From an uncultured Deferribacteres bacterium (GTDB lineage: Bacteria; Zhuqueibacterota; Zhuqueibacteria; Zhuqueibacterales; Geothermadaptataceae): DNA of 14,165 nucleotides. Position numbers and translations under genes: made by a program. Positions 197 to 14,103 of this stretch are shown one piece after another. Location of the stretch: NCBI GenBank assembly GCA_964014485.1, contig CAXHAT010000204.1, positions 1 to 14,165 on the forward strand, in the 5' to 3' direction. The notes beneath the pieces were generated by a model. That model was not told the DNA's origin. It saw only the letters and a list, made by a program, of their open reading frames with translations, and did not search any database. Positions within the stretch are counted from its first letter, which is position 1. Each line of letters begins with the position of its first letter.

Positions 197-2848
197 ATGG
201 AGTTGGAATTAAACAGTCAGGACGGAAGAAAAGAAATTGTCAAATCGAGCTACTACCGCCTCATATTTTGGGGCTTTCTCCTGCTTCTGGTAAACTCAGG
301 AGTTTTGCTGGCGTTTTCCGGCGTGAGTCTGATCAGGTACGCGAATCTTTTTCTCCACCTCGGCTTAGGCGTTGCGCTCATCATCCCCCTGTTCACCAAG
401 ATTCGCGAATTTCTCAACACCGACGCCAAGCTCGGCAAAGCGTTCGGCTATGCCGTCGGGCGCATCGGTTTTTGGTCGATGGCGCTCGCGTTTGCGCTCG
501 GCCTTTACCTCCTTTTCGCGGGCAATGACGCTTCCCAACCGGAAATTGTCTACGCTCACATCGGGCTCGGCTTTTTCGCTTACATGTGCCTGATTAGCTG
601 CATCCGCCGCGCGGCCTACAACATCAGCGTTGAGAACACTTACTGGCGCGCCGGGCGTTTGAGCCTGACCGTTTTTGTCGTCGCCGGAATGCTGCCGATT
701 CTCTCGATGATTTACTACACCGTCTTCAAAAATCCGGACGACAAGATCATCAACCCGAAATTTCCTTCCGGCTCGCTTGAAGAAGCAAACACCTACGGCG
801 AAGACAGCCCTTTTTTCCCCAGCCCGGCGGAAACAGTGTCGGGTAAAACGATTGACGCGCACTTTCTCGCTGATCCCGAAGGTGCAAGTTGCAGCGGTTC
901 AACATGCCATGACGGCGTGGTCGCGCAATGGAAAAAATCCAACCACAGCCTGCCCGCCGCTTCGAAAAAATCATATCTCGCCGCGCTCAAAATGGCCGAA
1001 TCCCTGAGCGGCGAACACGATTTCGGCAAGTACTGCGCGGGCTGTCACGAACCGGCGCGCTTGTTCAGCGGCATGACCGTCGAAGAAGCACACGCGGCGG
1101 AAAATCAAAACTTCGCCCAAACGGGAATTTCCTGCAACGGTTGCCACGCCATTTCCGGCGTGAAATCGACGATGGGCAACGGCGCTTACAAAATGGAGCG
1201 TCCGTCGTTTTGCGGCTTGATGGAAGCGGACAATTTTCTCGCGCGCGGCCTGCAACGCTTCCTGATTCACGTCGATCCGCAAGCGCACAGTCAGCAATTC
1301 TACAAGAAATTTTTCGACGAGCAGCGCAGCGCCTACTGCTCGAGCTGCCACAAAATGACCATCGACGCGCCCCTGCTCGCCACGAATTCTCTGCCCGGCT
1401 TGACCGAATACGACGGCTGGGTCGGCAGCAGCAACGCCAAACGCGACGTGCGCGCATTCTACCATCTCAACACCGAAAATTCATGCAGCGACTGCCACAT
1501 GGCGCGCATTCCTTCCGATGATCCCGGCGCAAAGCAAGATTCGATTCGCGATCATTCCTTCAAAATGCACTGGTTCAAAGACCTGGGCAAATCCGGTCAA
1601 AACGCAGGCACAAACTGGAAATCGCAGGGCTTGTCGCTTGAACTTTTTGCCGCGCACGGCAACGCCGATTCTCCGATTTCTCTCAAAAACAGCTTCACCA
1701 ATTTCAAACCCGGCGAAAAAATCAAGCTCGACGTGATCGTGAAAGCGATGAATTACGGCCACGCTTTTCCGGCAGGCGCGCCCGGACTGACGGAAGGCTG
1801 GGTTGAAATCACGGCAAAAGACGCTTCCGGAAAAATCGTTTTTCAAAACGGCGGGGTTGCGAAAAATCAGACGCTGCCCAAAGACGTTCACCGCTACGGC
1901 GTGACGTTTAAAGATGCGGACGGCAAACCGGTTTACTACGCACACGGCATCGGCGCGGCGGACGTGGAACACTCGCGATTTATCCCGGCAAACGGCGTGG
2001 ACTTGGCGAGCTACGATTTCACCATTCCGACGGACGCTGATTCGCTGTTGGAGATTTCCGCCAAATTGCATTATCGCAAACGTGAATCAGTCGCTGATTA
2101 CGGCAACGGCGCTGAAAAAGCCGAGCGTGACGGCGGCGGCGCAAAATTCAAATCACGTCTACTCGTTGAAAATGTCGTTTCGGTTCCTATTTCCGAGAAT
2201 GTTGACGAGGCCGAAAAAACGGCTTCGCCCAAAGAAGAATTTCTTTCATGGAATGACTACGGCTTGGCCCTGCTCCAGCGCGGCGATCTCGCGGAAGCCG
2301 AAAAAGCGTTTCAAAAAACGCTGGCGCAGGCGCCGGAATTTTACGACGGTTGGGTTAATCTCGCGCGCGTTTTACTCGTAACCGGCAGAGCGGATTCGGC
2401 GCGCGTCGCTTTGCAAAAAACCGTTAAAACTGATCCGAAAAATCCGAAGGGGCGCTTCTTTTTGGCGTTGGCTTATAAACAAACCGGTGAGTACAGCGAG
2501 GCGAAAAACGAGTTGTCCAATATTCTGAAACGCTTCTCACGCGACCGCGCCGTCGGCAACCACCTTGGGCATATTCATATGCTCGAAGGCGATTACGAAA
2601 ACGCCGGACGCTTGCTCAGAAAAATCATCCGCCACGCCCCGGACGATCCGGTGGCGCATTTTTATCTGATGTACGTGTACAAAAAGCTCAAAGACCCGGA
2701 GAAAGCCGCCTTTGCCGAAAAGCTCTACGAACGTTTTTCGAGCCGCTACGGGCGCAAACCCGTCACGCCGCCGCTCAAAATCGACGAACCCCTACGGCTC
2801 TGGCAAGTGCTCCCGTGGACGAATTATATGACCAACAATTTGGAATAA
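197..2848 (+). CDS. Membrane-anchored multiheme c-type cytochrome with C-terminal TPR repeats (883 aa)
   Basis: About 5 hydrophobic N-terminal segments. Heme motifs CSGSTCH (890-910, CX4CH), CAGCH (1034-1048), CNGCH (1133-1147), CSSCH (1337-1351), CSDCH (1484-1498). C-terminal TPR-like helices (WNDYGLALLQRGDLAEAEKAFQK..., WVNLARVLL..., AHFYLMYVY). GGAGG RBS at 187-191. Confidence 0.85.
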   Translation: MELELNSQDGRKEIVKSSYYRLIFWGFLLLLVNSGVLLAFSGVSLIRYANLFLHLGLGVALIIPLFTKIREFLNTDAKLGKAFGYAVGRIGFWSMALAFALGLYLLFAGNDASQPEIVYAHIGLGFFAYMCLISCIRRAAYNISVENTYWRAGRLSLTVFVVAGMLPILSMIYYTVFKNPDDKIINPKFPSGSLEEANTYGEDSPFFPSPAETVSGKTIDAHFLADPEGASCSGSTCHDGVVAQWKKSNHSLPAASKKSYLAALKMAESLSGEHDFGKYCAGCHEPARLFSGMTVEEAHAAENQNFAQTGISCNGCHAISGVKSTMGNGAYKMERPSFCGLMEADNFLARGLQRFLIHVDPQAHSQQFYKKFFDEQRSAYCSSCHKMTIDAPLLATNSLPGLTEYDGWVGSSNAKRDVRAFYHLNTENSCSDCHMARIPSDDPGAKQDSIRDHSFKMHWFKDLGKSGQNAGTNWKSQGLSLELFAAHGNADSPISLKNSFTNFKPGEKIKLDVIVKAMNYGHAFPAGAPGLTEGWVEITAKDASGKIVFQNGGVAKNQTLPKDVHRYGVTFKDADGKPVYYAHGIGAADVEHSRFIPANGVDLASYDFTIPTDADSLLEISAKLHYRKRESVADYGNGAEKAERDGGGAKFKSRLLVENVVSVPISENVDEAEKTASPKEEFLSWNDYGLALLQRGDLAEAEKAFQKTLAQAPEFYDGWVNLARVLLVTGRADSARVALQKTVKTDPKNPKGRFFLALAYKQTGEYSEAKNELSNILKRFSRDRAVGNHLGHIHMLEGDYENAGRLLRKIIRHAPDDPVAHFYLMYVYKKLKDPEKAAFAEKLYERFSSRYGRKPVTPPLKIDEPLRLWQVLPWTNYMTNNLE

Positions 2849-3402: not shown

Positions 3403-4467
3403 ATGGGCATTGCCATAAAAAACGCGGACTTGGTCGCGGACAAAGAGACGATGATGAAGGTGCTCTTGCGCAACCGCACCAAGTACCAAAACGACAAAAC
3501 CTTCGAGCAGCGCTACGATTGGCTCTACCACAAAAATCCCCACGGCCCGGCGGCCGCCTGGCTCGTGGTCGATGACAAAAAAGACGAAGTCGTCGGCTTC
3601 ACCTCCGCCTTTCCACGACGCATGTCCGTCTTTGGCGAAGATTCTCTGGCGTGGAATTGCGCCGATTTTTCCATCGATCAGGCCTACCGCGTCCTCGGCG
3701 TAGCAATCAAGCTGCGGCGGGCGGCGAAAAACGGCGTCGATTCCGGCGACATGCCTTTTCTTTATGCGCACCCCAACGATCGGATGCTGGTCATCCACCA
3801 AAAAGTCGGGCACCATGCCATCGGACACATGAAGCGCTACGCCGCATTGTTGCGCGTGGACAAAATGATCTCCCAGCGCGTCAAGCACGATTTGGCGTCG
3901 TCCGTTTTGCGCGGCGTCGGAAATCCACTGCTCAAATTCGCCTCGCCGTCTCCGAGAAAGAAGGATGCCGGCTTGCGCTGCGAGTTTGCAGTGAACGATA
4001 CATTCGGCGAAGAATTTTCGGATTTGTATGAGCAGGCCAAAGACGTTTTTCCCGTCATCGGCTGCCGCGACGCGGAATATTTGAACTGGCGCTACACGGA
4101 AAATCCGCTGCAAACTTTCGAGACGTTGAAATTTTACCATCAAGGCCGTTTGGCGGGCTATTGCATTTTCGATCAGCAAGGCGACGTGGCGCACATCGCC
4201 GATTTTCTGGCGGTCAAGCCGGACGAATTGATCGAGTCGATGCTGGCGGAATTGTTCTCGTGGCTGCGCGAGCGCCGTGTGGCAACGGCTTCGATCAAGC
4301 TGCACACCGGCAACGTTTTGCTGCCGCACCTGCTGCGCTTCGGTTTCCAGGAACGCGACGACGCAACCTCAACCGTCATCGCCTACGCCCCGGAATCGTC
4401 CCCCTTCGCCGAAGCCGTGACCAAGCCGGGGAATTGGTTTATGACTGTGGGGGATCGGGATGTTTAG
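3403..4467 (+). CDS. GNAT-fold (probably tandem, FemAB-like) acyltransferase, polysaccharide-cluster associated
   Basis: 354-aa ORF. N-terminal YDWLYHKNPHG, GNAT motif-A-like ADFSIDQAYRVLGVAIKL, LYAHPND; second half RDAEYLNWRYTENP; C-terminal WFMTVGDRD, typical of GNAT proteins in EPS loci. Confidence 0.8.
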   Translation: MGIAIKNADLVADKETMMKVLLRNRTKYQNDKTFEQRYDWLYHKNPHGPAAAWLVVDDKKDEVVGFTSAFPRRMSVFGEDSLAWNCADFSIDQAYRVLGVAIKLRRAAKNGVDSGDMPFLYAHPNDRMLVIHQKVGHHAIGHMKRYAALLRVDKMISQRVKHDLASSVLRGVGNPLLKFASPSPRKKDAGLRCEFAVNDTFGEEFSDLYEQAKDVFPVIGCRDAEYLNWRYTENPLQTFETLKFYHQGRLAGYCIFDQQGDVAHIADFLAVKPDELIESMLAELFSWLRERRVATASIKLHTGNVLLPHLLRFGFQERDDATSTVIAYAPESSPFAEAVTKPGNWFMTVGDRDV

Positions 4468-4505
4468 TGATCAGTGTTCAGTTGTCAGTGATCAGTTTTT
4501 AGTCC
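4464..4505 (+). repeat. Degenerate heptamer tandem repeat (TCAGTGA-like) x6
   Basis: TTAGTGA TCAGTGT TCAGTTG TCAGTGA TCAGTTT TTAGTCC, starting at the GNAT stop codon. Confidence 0.8.
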
Positions 4506-4508
4506 CGC

Positions 4509-4639
4509 CGCGCGAAGCGCGCGAAATTCCCCCTTTGAAGGGGGTTAGGGGGATGTCTTGAGGTGTCGTCGCAAATGCAAAGGCCGTAAACATCCCCCCC
4601 AACCCCCCTTCGAAGGGGGGAGCACAGCGCGTTTCGCGC
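4509..4639. repeat. Family B palindromic element, full copy
   Basis: GCGCGAAGCGC mini-hairpin, CCCCCTTTGAAGGGGGTTAGGGGGATGT ... ACATCCCCCCAACCCCCCTTCGAAGGGGGG, closing GCGCGTTTCGCGC. 4524-4556 is an exact 33-bp reverse complement of 8494-8526. Confidence 0.85.
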
Positions 4640-4662
4640 CCACTGAACGAAACCCCTCGCAC

Positions 4663-4733
4663 GTCATTCCCGCGCAGGCGGGAATCCAGGAACGTGCGCA
4701 CGAGCAATAGATTCCCGCCTGCGCGGGAATGAC
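4663..4733. repeat. Inverted doublet of ATTCCC-N8-GGGAAT (dRS3-like) repeat, family C
   Basis: Perfect 24-bp inverted repeat GTCATTCCCGCGCAGGCGGGAATC (4663-4686) / GATTCCCGCCTGCGCGGGAATGAC (4710-4733); each arm contains ATTCCC-N8-GGGAAT. Confidence 0.85.
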
Positions 4734-4797
4734 TTAGAGCGTAAAAATCAAAAATTGCCGCTTCACCATTCACGAAATACACCAGGAGCACCACACC

Positions 4798-5037
4798 ATG
4801 GACACAAAAAATAAAATCCGCCAATTCTTTGGCAATACGCTGGAAAACGAGAACATCGGCGATGACGACAGCTTGCTGTTGGCGGGCATCATCGACTCGC
4901 TGAAAATGATGGATTTGATCGAATACCTCGAAAAAGAATTCAGCCTGAAAGTTGACGAAGACGAGCTCATGCCCGACAACTTCGACTCCATCAACGCCAT
5001 CGCGAGTTTCCTTGAAGGAAAACAAACAGCGGCGTAA
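4798..5037 (+). CDS. Acyl/aminoacyl carrier protein (phosphopantetheine-binding)
   Basis: 79 aa, acidic. DDDSLLLAGIIDSLKMMDLIEYLEKEF contains the GxxDS(L) Ppant serine; C-terminal ELMPDNFDSINAI is DltC-like. CAGGAG RBS upstream. Confidence 0.92.
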   Translation: MDTKNKIRQFFGNTLENENIGDDDSLLLAGIIDSLKMMDLIEYLEKEFSLKVDEDELMPDNFDSINAIASFLEGKQTAA

Positions 5038-5040
5038 CTC

Positions 5041-5075
5041 TAAACAGTAAGTTGTAAGCAGTGATTAGTAAACTG
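5041..5075 (+). repeat. Degenerate heptamer tandem repeat (TAAGCAG-like) x5
   Basis: TAAACAG TAAGTTG TAAGCAG TGATTAG TAAACTG, directly after the ACP stop. Confidence 0.65.
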
Positions 5076-5112
5076 AACGTTTCTGTTTCCGCAAATCGTC
5101 GGAGAAAGCACT

Positions 5113-5183
5113 GTCGTTTGTAGTTCACGCTTTAGCGTGCTTTTCAATGCTCAAAACACGCTAAAGCGTGGACTACGAACGAC
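5113..5183. repeat. GTAG-type REP doublet (REPIN-like), family D
   Basis: GTCGTTT-GTAG-TTCACGC-TTTA-GCGTG ... CACGC-TAAA-GCGTGGA-CTAC-GAACGAC: two inverted REPs, each a GTAG tetranucleotide followed by a short hairpin, the architecture of RAYT-associated REPs. Confidence 0.8.
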
Positions 5184-5248
5184 GTTGTCGCTCACAACAT
5201 TCAAACGAAAAAGTACACTAACGTTTATCGCTCAAAGGTTAAAATCTT

Positions 5249-5282
5249 TGTCAGAACAATTTTAAAACAAATCGTTCTGACA
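5249..5282. other. 14-bp inverted repeat immediately upstream of the larA-like start (operator, RNA hairpin or element remnant)
   Basis: TGTCAGAACAATTT (5249-5262) / AAATCGTTCTGACA (5269-5282), 13/14 complementary, ending 11 nt before ATG 5294. Confidence 0.45.
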
Positions 5283-5293
5283 GACAAAATAAA

Positions 5294-6523
5294 ATGTCAA
5301 AAAACGCTGAGCTCACCCTCCCCTGGGCGGCGTGGCATGAGGATGCACAGAAGCCCTGCCCGCTGCCGGAAAATTGGGACGTGCAAACTTTCGCCATGGC
5401 CGACGCGCCTGCGCTGACGCAAGAACAGCGCGAGGCCGCTTTCGCCAATCCGATTGAATCCGGCACGGTTGCCGAGCTGTGCGCGGGCAAAAAAACCGTC
5501 GCCATTGGCGTGGATGATTTGAGTCGCCCGACGCCAACCTGGCAGGTACTGGAAACCCTGCTCCCGGAAATCGAAAAGGCCGGGATTGCGCGCGAGAACG
5601 TCACCGTCGTTATCAGTCTGGGCGCGCACACGGCGCTGGGACGCGAGCAACTGGCGATGAAGCTCGGCGAAAACGTGGTCGCCGATTATCGCGTGGTCAA
5701 CCACAATTGCAAGGACGATCTCACGCCCAGCGGCGCGTTGGTAGGCAAAAACGAAGTCTCGATCAACAGTCATTTTCTCGCCGCCGACGTCAAAATGCTC
5801 ATCGGCAGCGTGGTGCCGCACCATTTCGCCGGATTCAGCGGCGGCGCCAAGATGATTTTGCCCGGCTTGTCCAACATTGAAGCCATCGCGTGGACGCACA
5901 AGGCGGTGCTGATGGGCTTGCGCGGCCATCCTGGCCAGACGGACAACAACCGTTTTCGCGCCGAGTTTGAGCGTGTGGCGCGGCACATTGGCGTGGATTT
6001 TTCCGTGAACGTGGTGGTGAACGGCGAGCGCGAAATTGCGGGATTGTTTACGGGTGATATTGTGGCGGCGCACCGCGAAGGCGCGGCGTTCGCCAAAAAA
6101 GTTTACCGCACCGAGAAGACGGAAAATCTCGACGTGGGCGTGTTCAATTGCTACCCCAAGGATACGGAGTTGATTCAGGCGGAGAACGCTTTCATGTATC
6201 TGCATTCCGCCGGGATTGAGGCGGTGAAGGAAGGCGGCACGGTGGTGGTGGCCTCGGCCTGCTCCGAGCACGTGGGCGAGCACGGCCTGTTCGAACCGGG
6301 CGGCCTGCTCTACCGCAAGCCGGTGAAAAAGGCCTTTCTCAAAAACCGCCATTTGATCTTTTTCTCGGAAAACCTGACGCGCGAGCAATTTCACCAGATT
6401 TACTGGGAAGGCTACGATTTCTGCGCCGCGTGGGACGAAGTCGTACAAACGCTCAAATCACGGCATGGCGAGGAATGCAAGGCAGGCGTTTTTCCGTGTG
6501 CGAGTATTCAGATTACTGAGTAA
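5294..6523 (+). CDS. larA: LarA-family nickel-pincer-dependent 2-hydroxyacid racemase/epimerase (lactate racemase domain protein)
   Basis: 409 aa. Motifs DDLSRPTP (DxxRP), SLGAH, VNHN, VPHHFAGFSGGAKMILPG and a downstream His (AWTH) match the LarA catalytic His, cofactor-linking Lys and Ni-His pattern. Substrate cannot be determined from sequence. Confidence 0.85.
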   Translation: MSKNAELTLPWAAWHEDAQKPCPLPENWDVQTFAMADAPALTQEQREAAFANPIESGTVAELCAGKKTVAIGVDDLSRPTPTWQVLETLLPEIEKAGIARENVTVVISLGAHTALGREQLAMKLGENVVADYRVVNHNCKDDLTPSGALVGKNEVSINSHFLAADVKMLIGSVVPHHFAGFSGGAKMILPGLSNIEAIAWTHKAVLMGLRGHPGQTDNNRFRAEFERVARHIGVDFSVNVVVNGEREIAGLFTGDIVAAHREGAAFAKKVYRTEKTENLDVGVFNCYPKDTELIQAENAFMYLHSAGIEAVKEGGTVVVASACSEHVGEHGLFEPGGLLYRKPVKKAFLKNRHLIFFSENLTREQFHQIYWEGYDFCAAWDEVVQTLKSRHGEECKAGVFPCASIQITE

Positions 6524-6615
6524 AGAACGCCGCACGAACGACAAAATTTGAACACATATATACTAAAAGACAAGGATGTCAACTAAACCCTAATCTTAAA
6601 ACAAGGAGTTAAATC

Positions 6616-7854
6616 ATGTATATACGTAAATTCAACGTTCGCAATTATATGATCCACAAGGACACAAATTTAAGTCTAACCCCGATTACGGTGTTGGTAG
6701 GTCCGAATGGTGGGGGTAAATCAGCGCTTTTTGACGCAATGTTAAATTTTTCTATGGTCTCGCGAGGAAGTATCACTCAAGCTTTTGGACCTTTTCCTTT
6801 TTCATACAAATCTACGTTGTGGAATGGTGCCAAAGGCGTTGACGGGCGGATGCACTATGATGTTGAGCTATCTAGTGCCGAAGATAGTCAAGGCTATTTA
6901 AAATATGAGATAGCGTATGCTCAGAATGGTGTTGAATTTAGTAGACCGGCATATACTATTTTCACTGAACGTTTAACCAAAATGCAATCAAATGAAATTC
7001 TGTTTGATCGTTCAAGGCCATCAGATTATCCAGCATTCAATAACATTTTAAAGGAATACGATAAAAGCATTTTTGCCGCACTGCGTCAAGAACAGATTGC
7101 AGGAAATGAGATTGTTGGAGTAGAAGAAACCGTGCTTGAGTTTTCTACCCAGATTAGTCGTTTTAATAGGTTCAAACTCGACTCATCGGTTTTGGCGCAA
7201 CCATCACGTTTACCAGATTTTTCAGATCAGGAGACTAACTCTCCCCCGCCTAGGATTGGATATCGTGGCGAAGATTTAGCAGGAACCCTCTATTACTTAT
7301 CGCAAACTCAGTCTCCAACTCTCGAAAAGATAAAAGAGAAAATCAGAGCTATCGATGAAAATTTTGATGACTTTGAGTTCAATGTTCTAGGAACTGATCG
7401 AATTGGCTTTTCTGCTACATACTCTGATAGCAGACAAATAGTACCTTCCGTTCGATTGTCATCCGGCACTTTAAATTATATCGGTTTAATAGTTTTAGTC
7501 ACTTCAATCACAAGATCTCCACTGCTAATGATTGAAGAACCCGAAAATGGGCTGACTCCACAAGCAGTGAAGTCATTCTATCAAACTGTACGCGAATTGG
7601 CTGAAAATGACGATCTCGACAAAAGAAGCCAAGTGTTAATATCTTCACATAGTCCTTTTGTAATTTGTGAAGCATGGAATGGAGAAGATCGAGATTTCAT
7701 TCATCGGGTGAAAGTCGATAATGGAGCCAGTCTTATAAGAAAATTTTCTAATGTTGTCGAAGAGCAAAAAATAGTGCTAGGCAAAAAGAATGGGGAACGA
7801 GTGCATTTGAGCTTAGCAAACGCGGAAGAAATCATGTCTGGGTATTTATCATAA
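6616..7854 (+). CDS. ABC-type AAA ATPase (AAA_21/AAA_15-like, defence/TA-associated class)
   Basis: Walker A GPNGGGKS, signature-like LSSGT, Walker B/D-loop LLMIEEPENGL, H-loop SSHSP; no TM segments; AAGGAG RBS at 6603-6608. AT-rich: line 6901-6960 is 21/60 GC versus 41/60 for line 5581-5640. Confidence 0.88.
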   Translation: MYIRKFNVRNYMIHKDTNLSLTPITVLVGPNGGGKSALFDAMLNFSMVSRGSITQAFGPFPFSYKSTLWNGAKGVDGRMHYDVELSSAEDSQGYLKYEIAYAQNGVEFSRPAYTIFTERLTKMQSNEILFDRSRPSDYPAFNNILKEYDKSIFAALRQEQIAGNEIVGVEETVLEFSTQISRFNRFKLDSSVLAQPSRLPDFSDQETNSPPPRIGYRGEDLAGTLYYLSQTQSPTLEKIKEKIRAIDENFDDFEFNVLGTDRIGFSATYSDSRQIVPSVRLSSGTLNYIGLIVLVTSITRSPLLMIEEPENGLTPQAVKSFYQTVRELAENDDLDKRSQVLISSHSPFVICEAWNGEDRDFIHRVKVDNGASLIRKFSNVVEEQKIVLGKKNGERVHLSLANAEEIMSGYLS

Positions 7855-7894
7855 CCGACATAGACGAGAAGTTTTGGGCAAAAAGCAATTTCAT
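7832..7894 (-). pseudogene. N-terminal stub of a DUF5615/PIN-like toxin (MKLLFAQNFS...)
   Basis: ATG overlaps the DUF433 stop (ATGA, 7891-7894). Translation MKLLFAQNFSSMSVMINTQT* resembles the MKLLFDQNLS start of DUF5615 toxins normally coupled to DUF433, then runs into the ATPase 3' end. Confidence 0.65.
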
Positions 7895-8118
7895 GTCGAA
7901 TGAACGACCATCTGAGATTTTTCCCGATCCGCCGCATACGCCAAGCATGCTCGAATGTCTTTCTCAGTCAGGTAGAGGAAATCATCCAGGATTTCCTGCA
8001 CGGTCATGCCGGAAGCAAGATAGTCGAGCACGTCGTAAACCGTGATCCGCAGTCCGCGAATGCAAGGCTTGCCGCTGCGTTTTCCCGGTTCGATGGTGAT
8101 AATGTCTTTGTAGTTCAT
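7891..8118 (-). CDS. DUF433 family protein (putative antitoxin)
   Basis: 75 aa, IITIEPGKRSGKPCIRGLRITVYDVLDYLASGMTVQEILDDFLYLTEKDIRACLAYAA is the typical DUF433 sequence pattern. Confidence 0.92.
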   Translation of the reverse strand: MNYKDIITIEPGKRSGKPCIRGLRITVYDVLDYLASGMTVQEILDDFLYLTEKDIRACLAYAADREKSQMVVHST

Positions 8119-8212
8119 AAGATTCCGACCTTTTGAAAGGGTTGGCTTGTTCGTCGCTTAGCATAAATATAAAAATATTCTCGAATTGGAGAATGATAAA
8201 AGTTGCTGTTTG

Positions 8213-8394
8213 TTTTTGACGGGATTTACTGGATTGACAAGATAAATCTAATCCTGATTATCCCGTGATCCTGTCTAAAAAAGAGCGGCGTTGTTTTTAA
8301 CGCGGAGATGCGAAGGCGCAGAGAAGAATTCTTTGAAAAAAACTCCGCGAAGCTTTGCGATCTCGGCGGCTCTGCGTTTAGTTTTGACTTTCCG
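8213..8394 (+). repeat. ~180-bp direct repeat, copy 1 (family F; two imperfect palindromes built from ~9-mer units)
   Basis: Hand alignment to 9225-9408 gives about 20 differences over the first ~170 nt (~88%). Sub-palindromes: TTTTGACGGGAT...ATCCTGTCTAAAA and TAACGCGGAG...CTCTGCGTTTA. Confidence 0.9.
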
Positions 8395-8410
8395 TTTTTT
8401 TGAGATTGAA

Positions 8411-8544
8411 GGCGCAAGGCGCCAGAAGTTCCCCCCTTCGAAGGGGGGCCAGGGGGGATGTTTTGAAGCTGTTTCCTTTCTCCGGCGCCCCAAACATCCC
8501 CCTAACCCCCTTCAAAGGGGGAATTTTTTAAGCGCTTCGCGCTT
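8411..8544. repeat. Family B palindromic element, full copy (opposite orientation to 4509-4639)
   Basis: CCCCCCTTCGAAGGGGGGCCAGGGGGGATGTTT ... AAACATCCCCCTAACCCCCTTCAAAGGGGGAATTT, ending AAGCGCTTCGCGCTT. Confidence 0.85.
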
Positions 8545-8591
8545 GTGGAATCTGCTGGCTTGAATGACGTTTTCTTTGACGGAAATCAATC

Positions 8592-8620
8592 TTGCATTCG
8601 AATGTATTCTGATGTACGTT
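8592..8620 (+). promoter_or_regulatory. Putative sigma70-type promoter with overlapping palindromic operator for the TA operon
   Basis: TTGCAT (8592-8597), 17-nt spacer, TACGTT (8615-8620). Palindrome CATTCGAATG (8595-8604) and a repeated ATGTA overlap it, as expected for antitoxin autoregulation. Confidence 0.4.
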
Positions 8621-8662
8621 TTGTGCAACGCAATAAACACAGATCATTCATGAGGGATTGCC

Positions 8663-8905
8663 ATGTCCAAGACGGTTACTTTGAGGCTGAATGAAAGCAA
8701 TTACGCGATGTTTCGCAATCTTGCCGCCGGCGAGAACAGAACGCTTTCAAACTTTATCGAGACTTCGGTGCTGCGTTTTATCGAGCAGAATCAGTTCGTC
8801 GATGAATATGAAATGGCCGAGATACAAAACAATGCGGAACTGAACGCCAGCTTGCAGCGCGCCCTCAAAGACGTTAAAGCGGAGAGGGGGCGTTTTGTCG
8901 AGTGA
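8663..8905 (+). CDS. Ribbon-helix-helix (CopG-like) antitoxin
   Basis: 80 aa. N-terminal KTVTLRL beta strand plus helices (AAGENRTLSNFIE); C-terminal SLQRALKDVKAERGRFVE typical of RelE-partner antitoxins; GAGGG RBS; overlaps the toxin start. Confidence 0.85.
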   Translation: MSKTVTLRLNESNYAMFRNLAAGENRTLSNFIETSVLRFIEQNQFVDEYEMAEIQNNAELNASLQRALKDVKAERGRFVE

Positions 8906-9179
8906 GTACCGTATTTTTGAAACGGATGAATTCACCAGGAAGCTCAGCAAGCTGAATCCGAAAGACAGGGCTTTTATTCAAAACAAACTCAGCGTTTATG
9001 TCTATCCCCAGATCAAGCAATCGCCGTGGTTTGGGCGTAATATCAAGAAGCTGAAAGGGTATGATCCAGCAACATGGCGGTATCGGATCGGGAAGTTCAG
9101 GCTGTTTTACATCGTCAATGATGAAACGCGAACGGTTTTTTTGCTGACCGTCGATCACAGGAAGGACGCTTATTCGTAA
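8895..9179 (+). CDS. RelE/ParE family type II toxin
   Basis: 94 aa, basic. YRIFETDEFTRKLSKL...NIKKLKG...WRYRIGKFRLFYIV...VFLLTVDHRKDAY is the RelE pattern. TTG start after GGAGAGG (8881-8887), overlapping the antitoxin stop. Confidence 0.92.
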   Translation: MSSEYRIFETDEFTRKLSKLNPKDRAFIQNKLSVYVYPQIKQSPWFGRNIKKLKGYDPATWRYRIGKFRLFYIVNDETRTVFLLTVDHRKDAYS

Positions 9180-9224
9180 AACGGCGCCTGCGGAGAAAAT
9201 CCCCGACAAGCAGATGGCTTACTT

Positions 9225-9408
9225 TTTTTGACGGGATTAACTGGATCGACAAGATAAATTTGATCCTGATCATCCTGTGATCTTGTCTAAAAACGAGCGG
9301 CGTTATTTTTTAACGCGGAGACGCAAAGGGCGCAGAGAAGAAATTTTTTTGGAAAACTCCGCGAAGCTTTGCGATCTTGGCGGCTCTGCGTTTAGAATTG
9401 ATTTGCCG
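9225..9408 (+). repeat. ~180-bp direct repeat, copy 2 (family F)
   Basis: Direct repeat of 8213-8394, offset 1012 bp. Confidence 0.9.
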
Positions 9409-9464
9409 ATCAGGTATCGTGAAAAATGCGCTTGTGCCTGCGAGCAAAATACCCCGAATCGTCG

Positions 9465-9629
9465 CATACGCGTCAACCTAAGCGCGAAGCGCTTAAAAAT
9501 TCCCCTCCGAGGAGGGGTTAGGGGTGGGTTTTTGAGCCTGTTGTCATTTCGACAACGCCCGAAACCCACCCCTTGCCCCTCCCAGGAGGGGACTTCCGCG
9601 TGCTTCGCACGCTTAATTTGACGCTTATG
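9465..9629. mobile_element. MITE-like non-autonomous element with a family B core, terminal inverted repeats and a 10-bp target-site duplication
   Basis: Ends CATACGCGTCAACCTAAGCG / CGCTTAATTTGACGCTTATG are imperfect inverted repeats. Identical CGAATCGTCG flanks at 9455-9464 and 9630-9639. Interior CCCCTCCGAGGAGGGG...CCCCTCCCAGGAGGGG. Confidence 0.75.
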
Positions 9630-9663
9630 CGAATCGTCGGGACTGAATGACATTCGGGGTGGG

Positions 9664-9739
9664 ACTGAATACTGAATACCGGACACTGGAAACTGACATT
9701 GCGGACTGATGACTAAAAACTGATCACTCATTACTGAAG
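9664..9739 (+). repeat. Degenerate heptamer tandem repeat (ACTGAAT/ACTGATC-like) x~10, reverse complement of the 4464-4505 type
   Basis: ACTGAAT ACTGAAT ACCGGAC ACTGGAA ACTGACA ... ACTGATG ACTAAAA ACTGATC ACTCATT ACTGAAG. 9711-9728 is the exact reverse complement of 4487-4504. Confidence 0.8.
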
Positions 9740-9750
9740 ACATCGTGATA

Positions 9751-11286
9751 ATGCATCTTGTACACCACTTCTTAGAGTATCACGCTGAGAAAACGCCGGG
9801 GGCGGTTGCGGCGATTCATGGGGAGGAGCAACGGACATACGCCGAGATCAACCGCGAGGCGAATCGCGTGGCGCACATGCTGCGCGAGTTTGGGGTAAAA
9901 CCTGGCGACCGGGTGGCGCTGGCGCTGGAGAACAGCATCGACTACATTTCAAGCTACTACGGCGTGCTGAAAGCGGGCGGCGTGACCGTGGCGCAATATC
10001 CGAATGCCACGCCGAAAACGCTCAAATTCGTGCTCAACGATTGCAGCGTCAAGGCTGTCATCGCGCGCGAACGACCGGCTCAGACCATTGCCTCGTTGGC
10101 GACGGAATTGCCCGATCTCAAGGCAATGATCGTGCGCGGCAACCGGAAAAACGCTTTGCCCGAAACCGGCTGGGCGCTGGCGAACGACAAAAATCTCGCG
10201 CACATGCCGGACGAAAATCCTGATCTCGATCTCATCGATTTGGCGCGCGCTTCCATCATTTACACTTCCGGCAGCACCGGCGATCCGCGCGGCGCGATCT
10301 TGAGCCATCTCAACATCGTCGCCAACACGCGTTCCATCGTCGAATATCTCGAATTGACCGCCGCTGACCGCATCATGGTCGTGCTGCCCTTCCCCTACGT
10401 TTACGGCAAATCGCTGCTCAACACGCATTTTTTCGCGGGCGGCAGCGTACTGCTGGACAATCGTTTTACCTTCCCAAACGCCGTTCTAAAAACCATGCTG
10501 GAAGGCGAGGCCACTGGCTTCAGCGGCGTACCCTCCACCTTTGCCATCTTGATGCACAAATCCGCCGTGCGCAAATTCGAGTTCCCGAAATTGCGCTACC
10601 TGACGCAGGCGGGCGGTCACATGGCCGAGCCGTTGGTGCGCGAGGTGGAAGAAGTTTTTTCCCAACAAAAATTATTTATCATGTACGGCGCCACCGAGGC
10701 TGCGGCACGTCTGGCTTATCTCGAGCCTGAGATGCTGCCGCAAAAGCGCGGTTCCATCGGCAAGGCGATTCCGAACGTGAATTTGCGCGTGCTGAACGAC
10801 GAGGGCGTAGAAGTTGGGGTCGGCGAAACCGGCGAATTGACGGCGCGCGGCTCGAACATGATGGAAGGTTATTGGAACAAGCCCGAAGAAACGGCGAACG
10901 TGCTCGACGCGCACGGCTTTCGCACCGGCGATTTGGCGCGCCGCGACGAGGACGGCTTTTTCTACATCGTCGGGCGCAAACGGGACATGATTAAATCCGG
11001 CGCCAACCGCGTCAGCGCGAAGGAAGTGGAAGAAACGCTGCTCGAATATCCGGATGTTTTGGAGGCGGCGGTGATTGGGGTGGAAGACGAAATTTTAGGC
11101 GAGGCGATCCATGCGTTCGTCGTGCCGAAAAACAACGCACCGCTGGCGGAAGATGAAATCATCGTCTTTTGCCGCGAGCGTTTGCTGGAATTTAAGGTAC
11201 CGAGAAAAGTGATTGTTGAAACGGCGTTGCCGAAAAACGCCTCAGGAAAGCTGATGAAAGAAGAATTGAGGAAGAGGTTCGCATGA
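9751..11286 (+). CDS. AMP-dependent acyl-CoA/acyl-carrier-protein ligase (ANL adenylation superfamily)
   Basis: IIYTSGSTGDPRG P-loop, MYGATEA, FRTGDL, GRKRDMIKSG hinge, LPKNASGK catalytic Lys. ATG 9751 chosen; in-frame GTG at 9745 is possible. The stop overlaps the next ATG (ATGA). Confidence 0.92.
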   Translation: MHLVHHFLEYHAEKTPGAVAAIHGEEQRTYAEINREANRVAHMLREFGVKPGDRVALALENSIDYISSYYGVLKAGGVTVAQYPNATPKTLKFVLNDCSVKAVIARERPAQTIASLATELPDLKAMIVRGNRKNALPETGWALANDKNLAHMPDENPDLDLIDLARASIIYTSGSTGDPRGAILSHLNIVANTRSIVEYLELTAADRIMVVLPFPYVYGKSLLNTHFFAGGSVLLDNRFTFPNAVLKTMLEGEATGFSGVPSTFAILMHKSAVRKFEFPKLRYLTQAGGHMAEPLVREVEEVFSQQKLFIMYGATEAAARLAYLEPEMLPQKRGSIGKAIPNVNLRVLNDEGVEVGVGETGELTARGSNMMEGYWNKPEETANVLDAHGFRTGDLARRDEDGFFYIVGRKRDMIKSGANRVSAKEVEETLLEYPDVLEAAVIGVEDEILGEAIHAFVVPKNNAPLAEDEIIVFCRERLLEFKVPRKVIVETALPKNASGKLMKEELRKRFA

Positions 11287-12389
11287 AAAAGTTGAAAATC
11301 GTCAACGTTGTCGGGGCGCGGCCCAATTTTATGAAAATCGCGCCGATTATCGCGGAAATGAAGAAGCACGAAGGCGTTGAGCCGTACTTGCTGCACACGG
11401 GGCAGCACTACGATCACGTGATGTCCGACTTGTTTTTTAATAATTTAGGTCTTCCTGAACCGGACGTTTACATGGGCATCGGCTCCGGCGGACACGGCGA
11501 GCAGACCGGCAAAGTGATGATCGGATTTGAAAAATATTTGCGCGAGCTCATGCCGGATGTTGTGCTGGTGGTCGGCGACGTGAATTCGACCATTGCGTGC
11601 GGACTTGTGGCGGTAAAAATGGGCGTGAAATTGGTGCATGTCGAGGCGGGCTTGCGTTCGTTCGATCGCGGAATGCCGGAAGAAATCAACCGCATCTTGA
11701 CCGACCAGATTTCGGATTTGCTGTTCACGACCGAGGAAGACGCGCTGGAGAATCTCAAGCGCGAGGGAATCGATGAGAGCAAGGTGCATTTTACCGGCAA
11801 CGTGATGATCGACAGTCTGAATTCGCACCTGGAAAAAGCGAAAAAGAGCGACGTTCTGGAGCGGATGGAAATGTCGCCCGGCGACTACGCTCTGGTGACT
11901 TTGCATCGTCCCGCGAATGTTGATGACAAAGAAGTTTTTACCGGTTTGTTGAACGCACTGTGCGAGATTTCAGAAAAAATGCCGGTGCTTTTCCCAGTGC
12001 ATCCGCGCTCGCGCAAGCAGATGAATTCGTTTGGCTTGCAGGACAAAATCGACGCTTTCCCGAACCTGAAAATCATCGAGCCGCTGGGCTATCTTGATTT
12101 TATGCAATGCACCGCCAACGCAAAAGTGGTGGTGACGGATTCGGGCGGCATTCAGGAAGAGACGACGGTGCTGGGCATTCCGTGTATCACCGCGCGGGAC
12201 AACACGGAGCGGCCGATCACGTGCTCGTTGGGCACGAATGTGATTGTCGGGCGTGATCCGCAGAAGATTTTGGCCGAGGTGCAAAAAGTGCTCGACGGCA
12301 CGGCGAAAAAAGGCCAGATCCCCCCGCTCTGGGACGGCAAAGCGTCCGAACGGATCGTGAAGATTTTGTGGGAGGAGTGTACGCGGTAG
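11283..12389 (+). CDS. wecB: UDP-N-acetylglucosamine 2-epimerase (non-hydrolysing)
   Basis: GARPNFMK, HTGQHYD, GDVNST, HVEAGLRS, MPEEINR, TLHRPAN, TDSGGIQEE and TERP motifs; 368 aa. Confidence 0.93.
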   Translation: MKKLKIVNVVGARPNFMKIAPIIAEMKKHEGVEPYLLHTGQHYDHVMSDLFFNNLGLPEPDVYMGIGSGGHGEQTGKVMIGFEKYLRELMPDVVLVVGDVNSTIACGLVAVKMGVKLVHVEAGLRSFDRGMPEEINRILTDQISDLLFTTEEDALENLKREGIDESKVHFTGNVMIDSLNSHLEKAKKSDVLERMEMSPGDYALVTLHRPANVDDKEVFTGLLNALCEISEKMPVLFPVHPRSRKQMNSFGLQDKIDAFPNLKIIEPLGYLDFMQCTANAKVVVTDSGGIQEETTVLGIPCITARDNTERPITCSLGTNVIVGRDPQKILAEVQKVLDGTAKKGQIPPLWDGKASERIVKILWEECTR

Positions 12390-12735: not shown

Positions 12736-14103
12736 ATGGCACGACAGCAGCGGAAGAATATTTTGATTATCAGCGCGGTGTTTCCGCCGGTTTCGACGAG
12801 CGGGATTCATCGCGTGGTGCGAGCGACGCGCTACTTGACGGAAATGGGTGTGGACGTGACGGTTTTGACGGTCGATGAGAAGACTTTGCCAAAGAGCTTC
12901 AGCTACGACCACAATGTTTTGGAAAAAATTCCGCCATCGGTGGCGGTGCATCGCGTTCCGGCGATCCAGGCTTTGCGCAAGTTGATTGATTTGAAAAATC
13001 GCGGCGAGAACAAAGGCTCGCAGGGTTCGACGCAGCCTTCGGCGAAGGCGGTTGAGACGGCGGCTTCGGAAAACGGCGCGAGCAAGAAATCAACGGCGCA
13101 GACGATTAAGGACGCAATCACGCTCAATTTAAACACGCCGGATAATTTTTCGATGTGGATTCGCCCGGCGATCAAGGCGGGGACGCAGATTGTGCAGCAC
13201 AAGGGCATTACGAATATTTTTTCCAGCAGCCCGCCCGGCAGCGTGCATGTCGTGGCGAATCAAATCAAGAAACGCACGGGCGCGCGCTGGATCGCCGACT
13301 TTCGCGATCCGTGGTCGCGCAAGCGCTGGTTCAACCCGGAAATGACGGCTTTCAAAAATCAGGCGATCAAACGCTTTGAGCGACGAACGATCCAGAATGC
13401 CGACAAGCTCATCATGAACACGGCGGAACTTCTGGAAGATTTTGGCAACCATTACGGCCCGGTTATTCAGCGCAAATCAACCGTAATCACCAACGGCTTT
13501 GATCCGGCGGATTTTGGCGATTTGCCGGAACCGAACGGCAAGGCGGACGACCGGCTCACGATTTGTCACACCGGCACATTTTATCGTCAGCGTTCGCCGA
13601 TGCCGTTTTTGCAGGGCTTGAAGCGCGCGGTCGACTCCGGCGTGCCGAAGACGCGCTTTCGCGTGCAGTTCATCGGCGGCGTCGGCGACCACAAGCCGAA
13701 CGTGGACAAATTCATTTCAGAAAACGACTTTGGCGACGTCATCGAAATCATTCCTTCAATCCCCCACCGCGATTGTTTGATTGCGATGCGCGAGGCGGAC
13801 GTTCTGCTCATCGTCCAGCCGGTAACGACGATTCAGATTCCGGCGAAAATTTTTGAGTACATCGCCACTGGCAAACCCATTCTTACGCTCAGCGCGCTCG
13901 GCGCCACGTCAAACGTTGTCACCAAAAACGAGCTCGGCTGGTGGGCGGATTTTGACAGCGAGGAACAAATCGGCGAACGCATCATTGAAATCGAGAAGTT
14001 TTTCAGCAACCCCGAAAACCGCAACTGGAAGCCCAAGCAAGAAGCGCTGGATCGGTTCAACGGTAAAATCCTTGTGGAAAGGATGTTTGATTTGTTAAGT
14101 TAG
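12736..14103 (+). CDS. GT-B fold glycosyltransferase, family 4-like
   Basis: ILIISAVFPP...SGIHRV, FSSSPPGSVH, WIADFRDPW, VITNGFD, ICHTGTFY, ADVLL, IPAKIFEYIATGKPIL. Confidence 0.9.
   Translation: MARQQRKNILIISAVFPPVSTSGIHRVVRATRYLTEMGVDVTVLTVDEKTLPKSFSYDHNVLEKIPPSVAVHRVPAIQALRKLIDLKNRGENKGSQGSTQPSAKAVETAASENGASKKSTAQTIKDAITLNLNTPDNFSMWIRPAIKAGTQIVQHKGITNIFSSSPPGSVHVVANQIKKRTGARWIADFRDPWSRKRWFNPEMTAFKNQAIKRFERRTIQNADKLIMNTAELLEDFGNHYGPVIQRKSTVITNGFDPADFGDLPEPNGKADDRLTICHTGTFYRQRSPMPFLQGLKRAVDSGVPKTRFRVQFIGGVGDHKPNVDKFISENDFGDVIEIIPSIPHRDCLIAMREADVLLIVQPVTTIQIPAKIFEYIATGKPILTLSALGATSNVVTKNELGWWADFDSEEQIGERIIEIEKFFSNPENRNWKPKQEALDRFNGKILVERMFDLLS

Follow-up and report, generated by a model that had tools for sequence, protein, structure and literature searches.

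The window analysed here is an entire contig of 14,165 bases (C204) from the genome of an uncultured Deferribacteres bacterium, which comprises 8.4 Mb in 465 contigs and is 97% complete and 0.8% contaminated. All major genes of the window are on the plus strand. Four of them are the subject of this work, namely those for a tandem-GNAT protein, a small acyl carrier protein (ACP), a divergent homologue of the lactate racemase LarA and an ANL (adenylate-forming) ligase. We interpret these genes as a conserved module that serves acyl tailoring in a Wzx/Wzy exopolysaccharide locus and that is split in the window by an island of defence and toxin-antitoxin genes, and we give this interpretation, together with the three enzymatic steps proposed below, a probability of about one half. 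The features of the window are as follows.

197 to 2848, plus strand: TPR protein of 883 amino acids with a c554-like cytochrome segment, a context gene (Pfam, NCBIfam)
3403 to 4467, plus strand: protein of the tandem-GNAT type (Eis-like or N-myristoyltransferase-like fold), 354 amino acids, proposed acyltransferase (fold, orthologues)
4798 to 5037, plus strand: small carrier protein of the acyl or peptidyl type (the ACP), 79 amino acids, Ser34 being the probable phosphopantetheine site (PP-binding, expect value (E) 1.6e-8)
5294 to 6523, plus strand: divergent LarA-fold enzyme, 409 amino acids, proposed C2 epimerase or racemase of the acyl group (Lar_N, E 7e-44)
6524 to 9744 (genes of the block from 6616 to 9740), no strand assigned: inserted accessory island, outside the pathway (low GC; absent from orthologous loci)
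6616 to 7854, plus strand: ABC-type defence-like ATPase, 412 amino acids (AAA_15/AAA_21; PADLOC)
7891 to 8118, minus strand: DUF433 gene (Pfam, E 3.4e-25)
8663 to 9179, plus strand: RelB/ParE-type pair (Pfam, NCBIfam)
9745 to 11286, plus strand: ANL ligase, 513 amino acids, proposed to load the acid on the carrier protein (AMP-binding, AMP-binding_C)
11283 to 12389, plus strand: WecB, non-hydrolysing UDP-GlcNAc 2-epimerase, which would supply a ManNAc-type sugar (TIGR00236)
12736 to 14103, plus strand: glycosyltransferase of family 4 (GT4), 455 amino acids (Glyco_transf_4, Glycos_transf_1)

An earlier interpretation made without database searches (hereafter, the sequence-only reading) proposed that a nickel-dependent LarA makes the rarer enantiomer of a 2-hydroxy acid, that the ligase loads it on the ACP and that the GNAT enzyme transfers it to an amino sugar. 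The gene order on which it relied is the one that we found: the GNAT-like, ACP and LarA-homologue genes are consecutive and co-oriented and, beyond the accessory block, the ligase gene is coupled to wecB, which it overlaps by 4 bases, and is followed by the GT4 gene.

We followed the gene set by three routes: the loci of LarA homologues, with one genome per species; the relatives of the window's genome; and the GNAT-like gene in metagenome contigs. In the first route, loci L004 to L011, whose LarA homologues are 38-57% identical to that of the window, have the ACP gene upstream in 7/7, the GNAT-like gene upstream in 5/7 and the ligase gene downstream in 4/7 assessable cases; L005, which begins at the upstream edge of the LarA homologue, could not be assessed for upstream genes. 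Other LarA homologues (28-37% identity) served as a control: their 72 loci gave no ACP or GNAT-like match, and distant ANL matches (about 30-44% identity) were seen in five of them, in L031 only as short fragments. The second route added 12 loci, showing the ACP gene directly upstream (11/11) and the ligase gene downstream (11/11) wherever this could be assessed, with wecB after the ligase in nine and the GNAT-like gene upstream in 7/11. The ACP gene was also upstream of the LarA homologue at all three loci from Calditrichia genomes. Overall, the ACP gene lies upstream of the LarA homologue and co-oriented with it at 21/21 assessable loci from three lineages, 19 of them with direct adjacency; the GNAT-like gene precedes the ACP gene at 12 of the 18 assessable genome loci, and an ANL orthologue is found within 10 kb of the LarA homologue at 15 of 19. 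The carrier-protein and LarA-homologue genes abut or overlap in most other genomes, as compared with a gap of 257 bp in the window. A hairpin with 31-nucleotide arms (90% complementary) and a 9-nucleotide loop lies inside this gap, at 5113-5183.

The third route yielded 80 metagenome loci with a GNAT-like gene of 31-55% identity. The ACP gene was present in 48 of the 53 loci with at least 500 bp of downstream sequence, and the LarA homologue in 39 of the 48 with at least 1 kb and in 22 of the 26 with at least 3.5 kb, the remaining four being also devoid of the ACP gene. Glycan clusters that keep the ACP, ligase and GNAT genes without larA, which the sequence-only reading regarded as fatal to its proposal, did not turn up along this route: all 22 ACP-bearing loci with at least 3.5 kb downstream carry the LarA homologue. 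Two loci with an ACP gene and no LarA homologue (L163 and L165) show a Wzx gene after the ACP gene and then the end of the contig. We do not take them as true exceptions, because the LarA homologue follows the Wzx gene in the similarly ordered loci L117, L118 and L145, but they were kept within the raw 9/48 loci lacking a LarA homologue.

Presence and absence across whole genomes follow the same pattern. Among 41 related genomes, 21 have the LarA subfamily of the window, accompanied by the GNAT-like gene in 19 of them and by the ANL orthologue in 17; among the 20 genomes without the subfamily, each of these two genes was found in two. Two unpublished genomes, G021 and G028, both subfamily-positive, are included in these counts; excluding them, the subfamily is present in 19 of 39 genomes, 17 of which have the GNAT-like gene and 16 the ligase. 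By each of the three routes, which are independent of one another, the gene set recurs far beyond chance. These results support the view that the four genes recur in glycan loci as a co-inherited module.

Every locus examined is a polysaccharide cluster, with genes for a Wzx flippase, a Wzy-like polymerase, GT4 and GT2 glycosyltransferases, a polysaccharide deacetylase, a FemAB-like protein and an AsnB-like amidotransferase, to which a heparinase II/III-like protein and a tyrosine kinase may be added. At L117, L118, L145 and L196 the Wzx gene is even placed between the ACP gene and the LarA homologue. The window's WecB is a firm member of TIGR00236 (349 bits, cut-off 210), and wecB comes after the ligase gene in 12 of the 13 assessable loci. 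Orthologues of the GT4 gene, with 28-33% identity, were found downstream of the cassette in L010, L011, L118, L122, L128, L130, L148 and L196-L198. A glycan-acylation module made up of ligase, carrier protein and acyltransferase, accompanied by a LarA-fold enzyme, is thus well supported, and it probably decorates a sugar with a small acid.

Some of the sister loci include parts typical of XrtA systems, such as a FemAB-type protein over the cut-off of TIGR03019 in L010 and relatives of TIGR03088, TIGR03097 and TIGR03108. The canonical XrtA set has the ligase together with a decarboxylase dependent on pyridoxal phosphate and with hydrolases, and is not known to include a LarA-fold enzyme. Our loci resemble XrtA/PEP-CTERM exopolysaccharide loci in having a ligase related to TIGR03098, the exosortase-A-associated acyl-CoA ligase (402-432 bits), but the ligase of the window is below the cut-off of that family (402 bits against 592) and no exosortase (PF09721) was found in the window's genome. 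On these two grounds we rejected XrtA/PEP-CTERM membership for this genome.

As to the individual proteins, the GNAT-like protein gave no solved relatives in a sequence search. Its AlphaFold2 model, built from an alignment of 52 sequences, has a predicted local distance difference test score (pLDDT) of 93.8 and a tandem-GNAT fold. The top Foldseek matches of this model are acetyltransferases with two GNAT domains of the Eis type (3n7z, 2hv2, 2i00, 2ozg and Eis itself), with template modelling (TM) scores of 0.56-0.66 overall and, for 3n7z, 2hv2, 2ozg and Eis, TM 0.64-0.66, E 3e-16 and a probability of 1.00; N-myristoyltransferases are likewise among the structural matches. The orthologue at L004 (51% identity) matches Acetyltransf_1 with E 3.9e-11. 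Judged by its modelled fold, the protein is an N-acyltransferase, in agreement with the acyl transfer that the sequence-only reading assigned to it. It shares with Eis and N-myristoyltransferase two fused GNAT domains and the N-acylation of amines, Eis acting on the amino sugars of aminoglycosides, but it is only 9-16% identical to them, and the known donors of these enzymes are acyl-CoAs, as opposed to the acyl-carrier-protein donor that the window enzyme would use. Stand-alone tandem-GNAT paralogues (31-48% identity) with no ACP gene or LarA homologue nearby were seen at L108, L109, L114, L150 and L184. They adjoin genes for GT4 or GT2 glycosyltransferases, for a polysaccharide deacetylase, or for a sugar epimerase plus a DegT aminotransferase, a neighbourhood that fits an amino-sugar acceptor for the tandem-GNAT family.

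The ANL ligase matches AMP-binding (263 bits) and AMP-binding_C (72 bits) in Pfam, and its sequence contains SGSTG-type and C-terminal GK motifs, which we take to be the core motifs of ANL enzymes. Its top solved relative is the adenylation domain of the linear gramicidin synthetase LgrA (E 3.5e-79), followed by feruloyl-, oxalyl-, fatty-acyl- and malonyl-CoA ligases. The substrate is probably not an alpha-amino acid, because the ligase reads FPYVYG at the place where amino-acid-activating adenylation domains have their hallmark Asp. On this point the comparison supports the sequence-only reading.

The Asp33-Ser34 motif of the carrier protein is invariant in 16/16 orthologues. The best NCBIfam matches of this protein are carriers of lipid or secondary metabolism (ornithine-lipid ACP, 36.7 bits), and there is a weak match to DltC (23.8 bits). 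A predicted complex of the LarA homologue with the carrier protein, for which two alignments were used, scored 0.18 against a mark of 0.32, a result that speaks neither for nor against binding.

The AlphaFold2 model of the LarA homologue (pLDDT 93.7) superposes over its full length on solved LarA structures, with TM 0.85 for 9eid and 0.82 for 6c1w. HMMER alignments to 6d6z and 9eid place R78, H112, H176, K186 and H202 at the positions of Arg75, His108, His174, Lys184 and His200 (LarA1 numbering), and these five residues are invariant in 35/35 database members and in 20/20 orthologues from genome loci. The enzyme therefore has the two-domain fold of characterised LarA, together with both catalytic His residues and the cofactor-holding Arg, Lys and His. 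It differs from it in an identity of no more than 23-26% and in its substrate pocket: Gln295 is kept in the subfamily, but Tyr294 of LarA is replaced by Leu or Ile and Lys298 by Asn or Ser in 20/20 orthologues. According to the available text on LarA of Isosphaera pallida, Lys298 helps to bind the carboxylic acid group of the substrate and Tyr294 binds its 2-OH, a Y294A variant losing the tethered cofactor (bioRxiv 10.1101/2024.11.28.625916). The substrates that LarA homologues racemise include 2,4-dihydroxybutyrate, glycerate and other 2-hydroxy acids, as stated in the available part of another article (PMC11770544). A further difference from characterised LarA is that the window's subfamily always adjoins a carrier-protein gene and occurs mostly in genomes without larB and larE. 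For groups 1 to 22 of LarA homologues, the portion of Table S1 available to us from Desguin et al. 2020 (PMC7583248) gives no ACP, and neither an ACP nor a COG0318 ligase came up when both supplementary files of that article were searched by term.

Taken together, these data lead us to propose the following sequence of steps. The ANL ligase would adenylate a small carboxylic acid other than an alpha-amino acid, most likely a 2-hydroxy acid, and form its thioester on the 79-residue carrier protein. The LarA-fold enzyme would then set or invert the configuration at C2, probably after the acyl group has been bound to the carrier and not while the acid is free, and the tandem-GNAT enzyme would move the acyl group to a sugar amino group in the repeat unit. 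WecB would supply ManNAc, and a free amine could be supplied by the polysaccharide deacetylases or DegT aminotransferases of sister loci.

We favour the alternative that the LarA-fold enzyme may act on the carrier-bound thioester. The link of its gene to the ACP gene is tighter than that to any other gene, the residues for binding the free acid, Tyr294 and Lys298, have both been lost, and with a thioester there would be no chemical need of a hydride step, as is established for thioester epimerases (methylmalonyl-CoA epimerase and the E domains of nonribosomal peptide synthetases, for instance). The racemisation of the free acid before ligation, which was the order of events in the sequence-only reading, fits the strict ACP-LarA adjacency and the loss of Tyr294 and Lys298 less well.

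Several observations weigh against our interpretation. Six of the 18 genome loci that could be assessed, namely L007, L009 and the four of genus g8, do not have the GNAT-like gene. In the latter genus, a heparinase-like gene of 820-855 codons precedes the ACP gene, and a GNAT-like paralogue with 38-41% identity is found elsewhere, beside a GT4 gene. L009, L010, L011 and L101 have no ligase gene within 10 kb of the LarA homologue; in Calditrichia without a ligase near the cassette, 7 of the 8 genomes tested have one orthologue elsewhere (48-54% identity), and in a test of five Calditrichia genomes it was found elsewhere in all five. In Pfam, the GNAT-like protein has only sub-threshold matches (Acetyltransf_7, E 0.012; Acetyltransf_9, E 0.033), and its characterised tandem-GNAT relatives use CoA thioesters and not acyl-carrier proteins, judging from the titles of the structure entries. 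The nearest curated NCBIfam families of the ligase, a subfamily of fatty-acid-CoA ligases and then TIGR03098, both reached with scores under the cut-off, are CoA ligases, so that the route may instead run through CoA. The LarA homologue falls under the cut-off of every LarA family in NCBIfam (at best 257 bits against 500) and has no LarA_C match in Pfam up to E 10; canonical-type LarA homologues of related genomes match both Lar_N and LarA_C. Finally, larB, larC and larE, the genes for making the nickel-pincer cofactor, were not found in the window's 97%-complete genome.

The search for the cofactor genes covered the window's genome by profile and by sequence. Two profile models for LarC found nothing; the best LarB score was 33 bits, in a frame of the size of PurE, and the best LarE score was 40 bits, confined to the PP-loop, neither being over the cut-off. 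With the LarB, LarC and LarE of a same-family relative as queries, tblastn gave nothing except one match with 22.6% identity and E 3e-4. In genomes of the same family larB, larC and larE are at separate places, so that one missing contig would not remove all three. That family has LarB in 8/9 genomes, LarE in 8/9 and LarC in 7/9. The sister family of the same order (f2, G015-G033) has the LarA subfamily in 16/19 genomes and LarB and LarE in 0/19 each (14/17, 0/17 and 0/17, respectively, without the unpublished G021 and G028), and in five of its genomes that are 99-100% complete the best scores were 40 bits for LarE and 47 bits for LarB. A larC gene is nevertheless present in 12 of the 19 sister-family genomes, in two pieces in G025 and partial with an internal TGA in G027. 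No substitute for LarB or LarE was seen beside the lone larC in L102 and L103, where the neighbours are only housekeeping genes. The same 10 of 31 Calditrichia genomes have LarB, LarC and LarE, and 16 have the LarA subfamily, with an overlap of six. Two of the 10 genomes with the subfamily and none of the three proteins (G053 and G065), both of which carry the cassette, include contigs of 4,978,541 and 4,732,520 bases; one of the proteins of G053 is identical to P0083, which NCBI assigns to the cultured Caldithrix abyssi. In total, 27 of the 37 subfamily-bearing genomes lack both larB and larE, and often larC as well, and the active-site residues of the subfamily are invariant all the same. 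The nickel dependence claimed in the sequence-only reading does not hold up against this record, since that reading itself regarded a genome without cofactor genes as evidence against it.

Canonical-type LarA homologues also occur in four class-level relatives without larBCE (L200, L202, L203 and L204, in G042, G039, G037 and G040, respectively; 93-100% complete). These proteins match Lar_N and LarA_C and keep Tyr, Gln and Lys as well as the cofactor residues, and their genes adjoin those for an aldolase, a xylose-isomerase-like protein and an aldehyde:ferredoxin oxidoreductase. L199 was dropped from this comparison, the reading frame taken there being on the wrong strand. Their occurrence suggests that there may be an unrecognised supply of the cofactor in these lineages. 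In the portions available to us, the literature covered contains no statement on larA without larBCE and describes the reverse case, larBCE without larA, in about 15% of genomes (PMC11796402).

In the light of these data, the pathway of the sequence-only reading stands in outline as a module of glycan loci, but not in its nickel-dependent step. A nickel-pincer LarA that racemises the free cytoplasmic 2-hydroxy acid, of which the ligase would load the rarer enantiomer for transfer by the GNAT enzyme, with larBCE either unassembled or replaced by an unrecognised supply, seems to us unlikely. It agrees with the invariance of the residues for cofactor holding and hydride transfer, with the hint from the canonical-type homologues just mentioned, and with the co-occurrence of the module with larB and larE in the same-family genomes G008, G011, G013 and G014 (larC as well in three, but not found in G014, which is 67% complete) and with larBCE in six Calditrichia genomes. 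Nevertheless, it has to contend with the absence of three separately located genes from a 97%-complete genome and of larB and larE from most subfamily genomes, five of which are 99-100% complete and two of which have the contigs of 4.98 and 4.73 Mb, and with the replacement of Tyr294 and Lys298 throughout; it also leaves unexplained why the LarA gene is linked more tightly to the ACP gene than to the ligase gene. Because C2 protons become acidic in a thioester, the conserved His pair could invert the centre without a cofactor. On this basis we tentatively propose, as a possibility below even odds, that the ACP-linked LarA subfamily represents a novel type within the LarA superfamily, an epimerase of 2-hydroxyacyl thioesters held on the ACP, working by acid/base chemistry of the His pair without the nickel-pincer cofactor, or else that it is served by an unrecognised route for making or acquiring the cofactor, which would itself be a novelty. 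A cofactor-free epimerase of this kind would explain together the strict ACP linkage, the loss of Lys298 and Tyr294 and the absence of larB and larE. The missing cofactor genes count against dependence on the nickel pincer and the invariant cofactor-binding residues count for it.

The absence of larB, larC and larE, the 3.2-kb island between the LarA homologue and the ligase gene, and the ACP-LarA gap widened to 257 bp and occupied by a hairpin could also be taken as signs of a stranded and inactive relic, whose cofactor genes were lost and whose operon was split by a mobile island. We regard this as very improbable: the gene is full-length (409 amino acids, compared with 403-415 in orthologues) and free of stops and frameshifts, all of its conserved residues are intact, and being without larB and larE is the rule in the subfamily. 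The invariant active site in such genomes indicates purifying selection and not decay. Almost as hard to accept, though somewhat less so, is a module that serves no glycan and whose product would be a lipid, an N-acyl amino acid or a modified secreted protein; the same could be the case with the ligase and ACP genes of XrtA/PEP-CTERM loci. TIGR03098 as the second-best curated family of the ligase would suit this reading of the module, as would the lipid and secondary-metabolite carriers that head the matches of the ACP and the protein N-acylators among tandem-GNAT enzymes (N-myristoyltransferase, and Eis, which acts on proteins as well as aminoglycosides). Against it stand the Wzx/Wzy/glycosyltransferase cluster at every locus examined, the translational coupling of the ligase to wecB, the Wzx gene intercalated in the cassette at several loci, the company kept by the GNAT-like paralogues of L108, L109, L114 and L150 (GT4/GT2, deacetylase, DegT aminotransferase and sugar epimerase) and the lack of a detectable exosortase in the window's genome.

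By analogy, the system closest to the proposed acyl-tailoring module would be the tetronate route put forward for Vibrio cholerae O1, which concerns 3-deoxy-L-glycero-tetronate (2,4-dihydroxybutanoate). The partners of that module are an alcohol dehydrogenase, LuxC/LuxE-like proteins and a different acyltransferase. A Pfam scan of the window found no dehydrogenase or reductase. The original paper on the V. cholerae module is reportedly that of Morona and colleagues from 1995 (Gene 166:19). The O antigen of V. cholerae O1 is perosamine N-acylated with tetronate (PMC3441752, in the text available), and RfbL and RfbK have been proposed as the ligase/carrier pair for this 2-hydroxy acid N-acyl group (PMC12208996, likewise in the text available). 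RfbK/WbeK and RfbL/WbeL resemble our module, by description and not by sequence, in combining a ligase and a small carrier in an O-polysaccharide cluster with a 2-hydroxy acid as N-acyl group, but no LarA-fold enzyme is reported there. The statement of the sequence-only reading that such a pathway had no precedent is accordingly too broad as regards the ligase and carrier, and it is right as regards their LarA-fold partner.

The Dlt system (DltA, DltC, the MBOAT protein DltB, and DltD) also pairs a ligase with a dedicated carrier of 80 residues, onto which a small acid is loaded for the decoration of an envelope polymer. It differs in three respects: the transferase of the window is a tandem GNAT of cytoplasmic type, the LarA-fold enzyme has no Dlt counterpart, and the ligase of the window, as we read its sequence, does not have the Asp that binds amino acids. 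The Pfam scan found no MBOAT or DltD-like gene in the window, and an MBOAT protein with a DUF1574/GDSL protein was seen once, in the insert of L092. Envelope decoration by a ligase and a carrier is thus already known from Dlt and from the proposed V. cholerae route, and what is new is the LarA-fold partner; in our literature search, LarA homologues were described neither together with a carrier protein nor as part of a polysaccharide pathway.

The accessory block that separates the LarA homologue from the ligase gene has a GC content of 0.38-0.47, compared with 0.52-0.60 in its flanks. It is an insertion, because the two genes are adjacent in L005, L007, L093 and L096 and are split by unrelated inserts elsewhere. 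These inserts comprise a helicase/PLD protein (L090), an SBBP beta-propeller protein of 1,100 amino acids (L006, L099), an AAA_14 ATPase with MBOAT, DltD-like DUF1574/GDSL and HTTM proteins (L092) and a unique membrane protein (L004), which makes the junction a recurrent insertion site, or hot spot. In L004 a gene for a 358-residue protein separates the LarA homologue from the ligase gene; this protein was considered as a fifth component and rejected, for it is unique to that locus. Within the block of the window, the ATPase at 6616-7854 resembles the candidate defence ATPases HEC-01A (E 1.9e-29) and AriA (E 4.6e-25) in PADLOC; it has no recognisable nuclease partner, and the DUF433 gene has no obvious toxin partner. 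The RelB/ParE-type pair lies between two direct repeats of about 180 bp (8213-8394 and 9225-9408), which are 86-90% identical, and this toxin-antitoxin cassette looks like a separately inserted unit.

Two further features of the window may be mentioned. A palindrome similar to repetitive extragenic palindromic elements, with the core TTCCCC..TTCGAAGGGGG..AGGGGGATGT, occurs in the intergenic regions at 2851-2905, 4510-4640, 8411-8544 and 9480-9595, often as inverted pairs, and is responsible for several spurious open reading frames in the gaps between genes. In the 883-residue protein encoded at 197-2848, the cytochrome c554-like segment covers residues 235-317 (E 1.4e-4), with TPR repeats towards the C-terminus; its top NCBIfam match is PrsT of XrtA/PEP-CTERM loci, with 67 bits and far under the cut-off.

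If confirmed, the module described here would add stereochemical editing to glycan acylation. For the study of the nickel-pincer cofactor, the subfamily offers a sharply defined test case, with an intact cofactor site in genomes that mostly lack larB and larE. The genes of this subfamily are currently labelled as 'nickel-dependent lactate racemase', and the annotation of LarA homologues would change either way, whether the LarA fold proves to work here without the cofactor or an unrecognised cofactor route exists.

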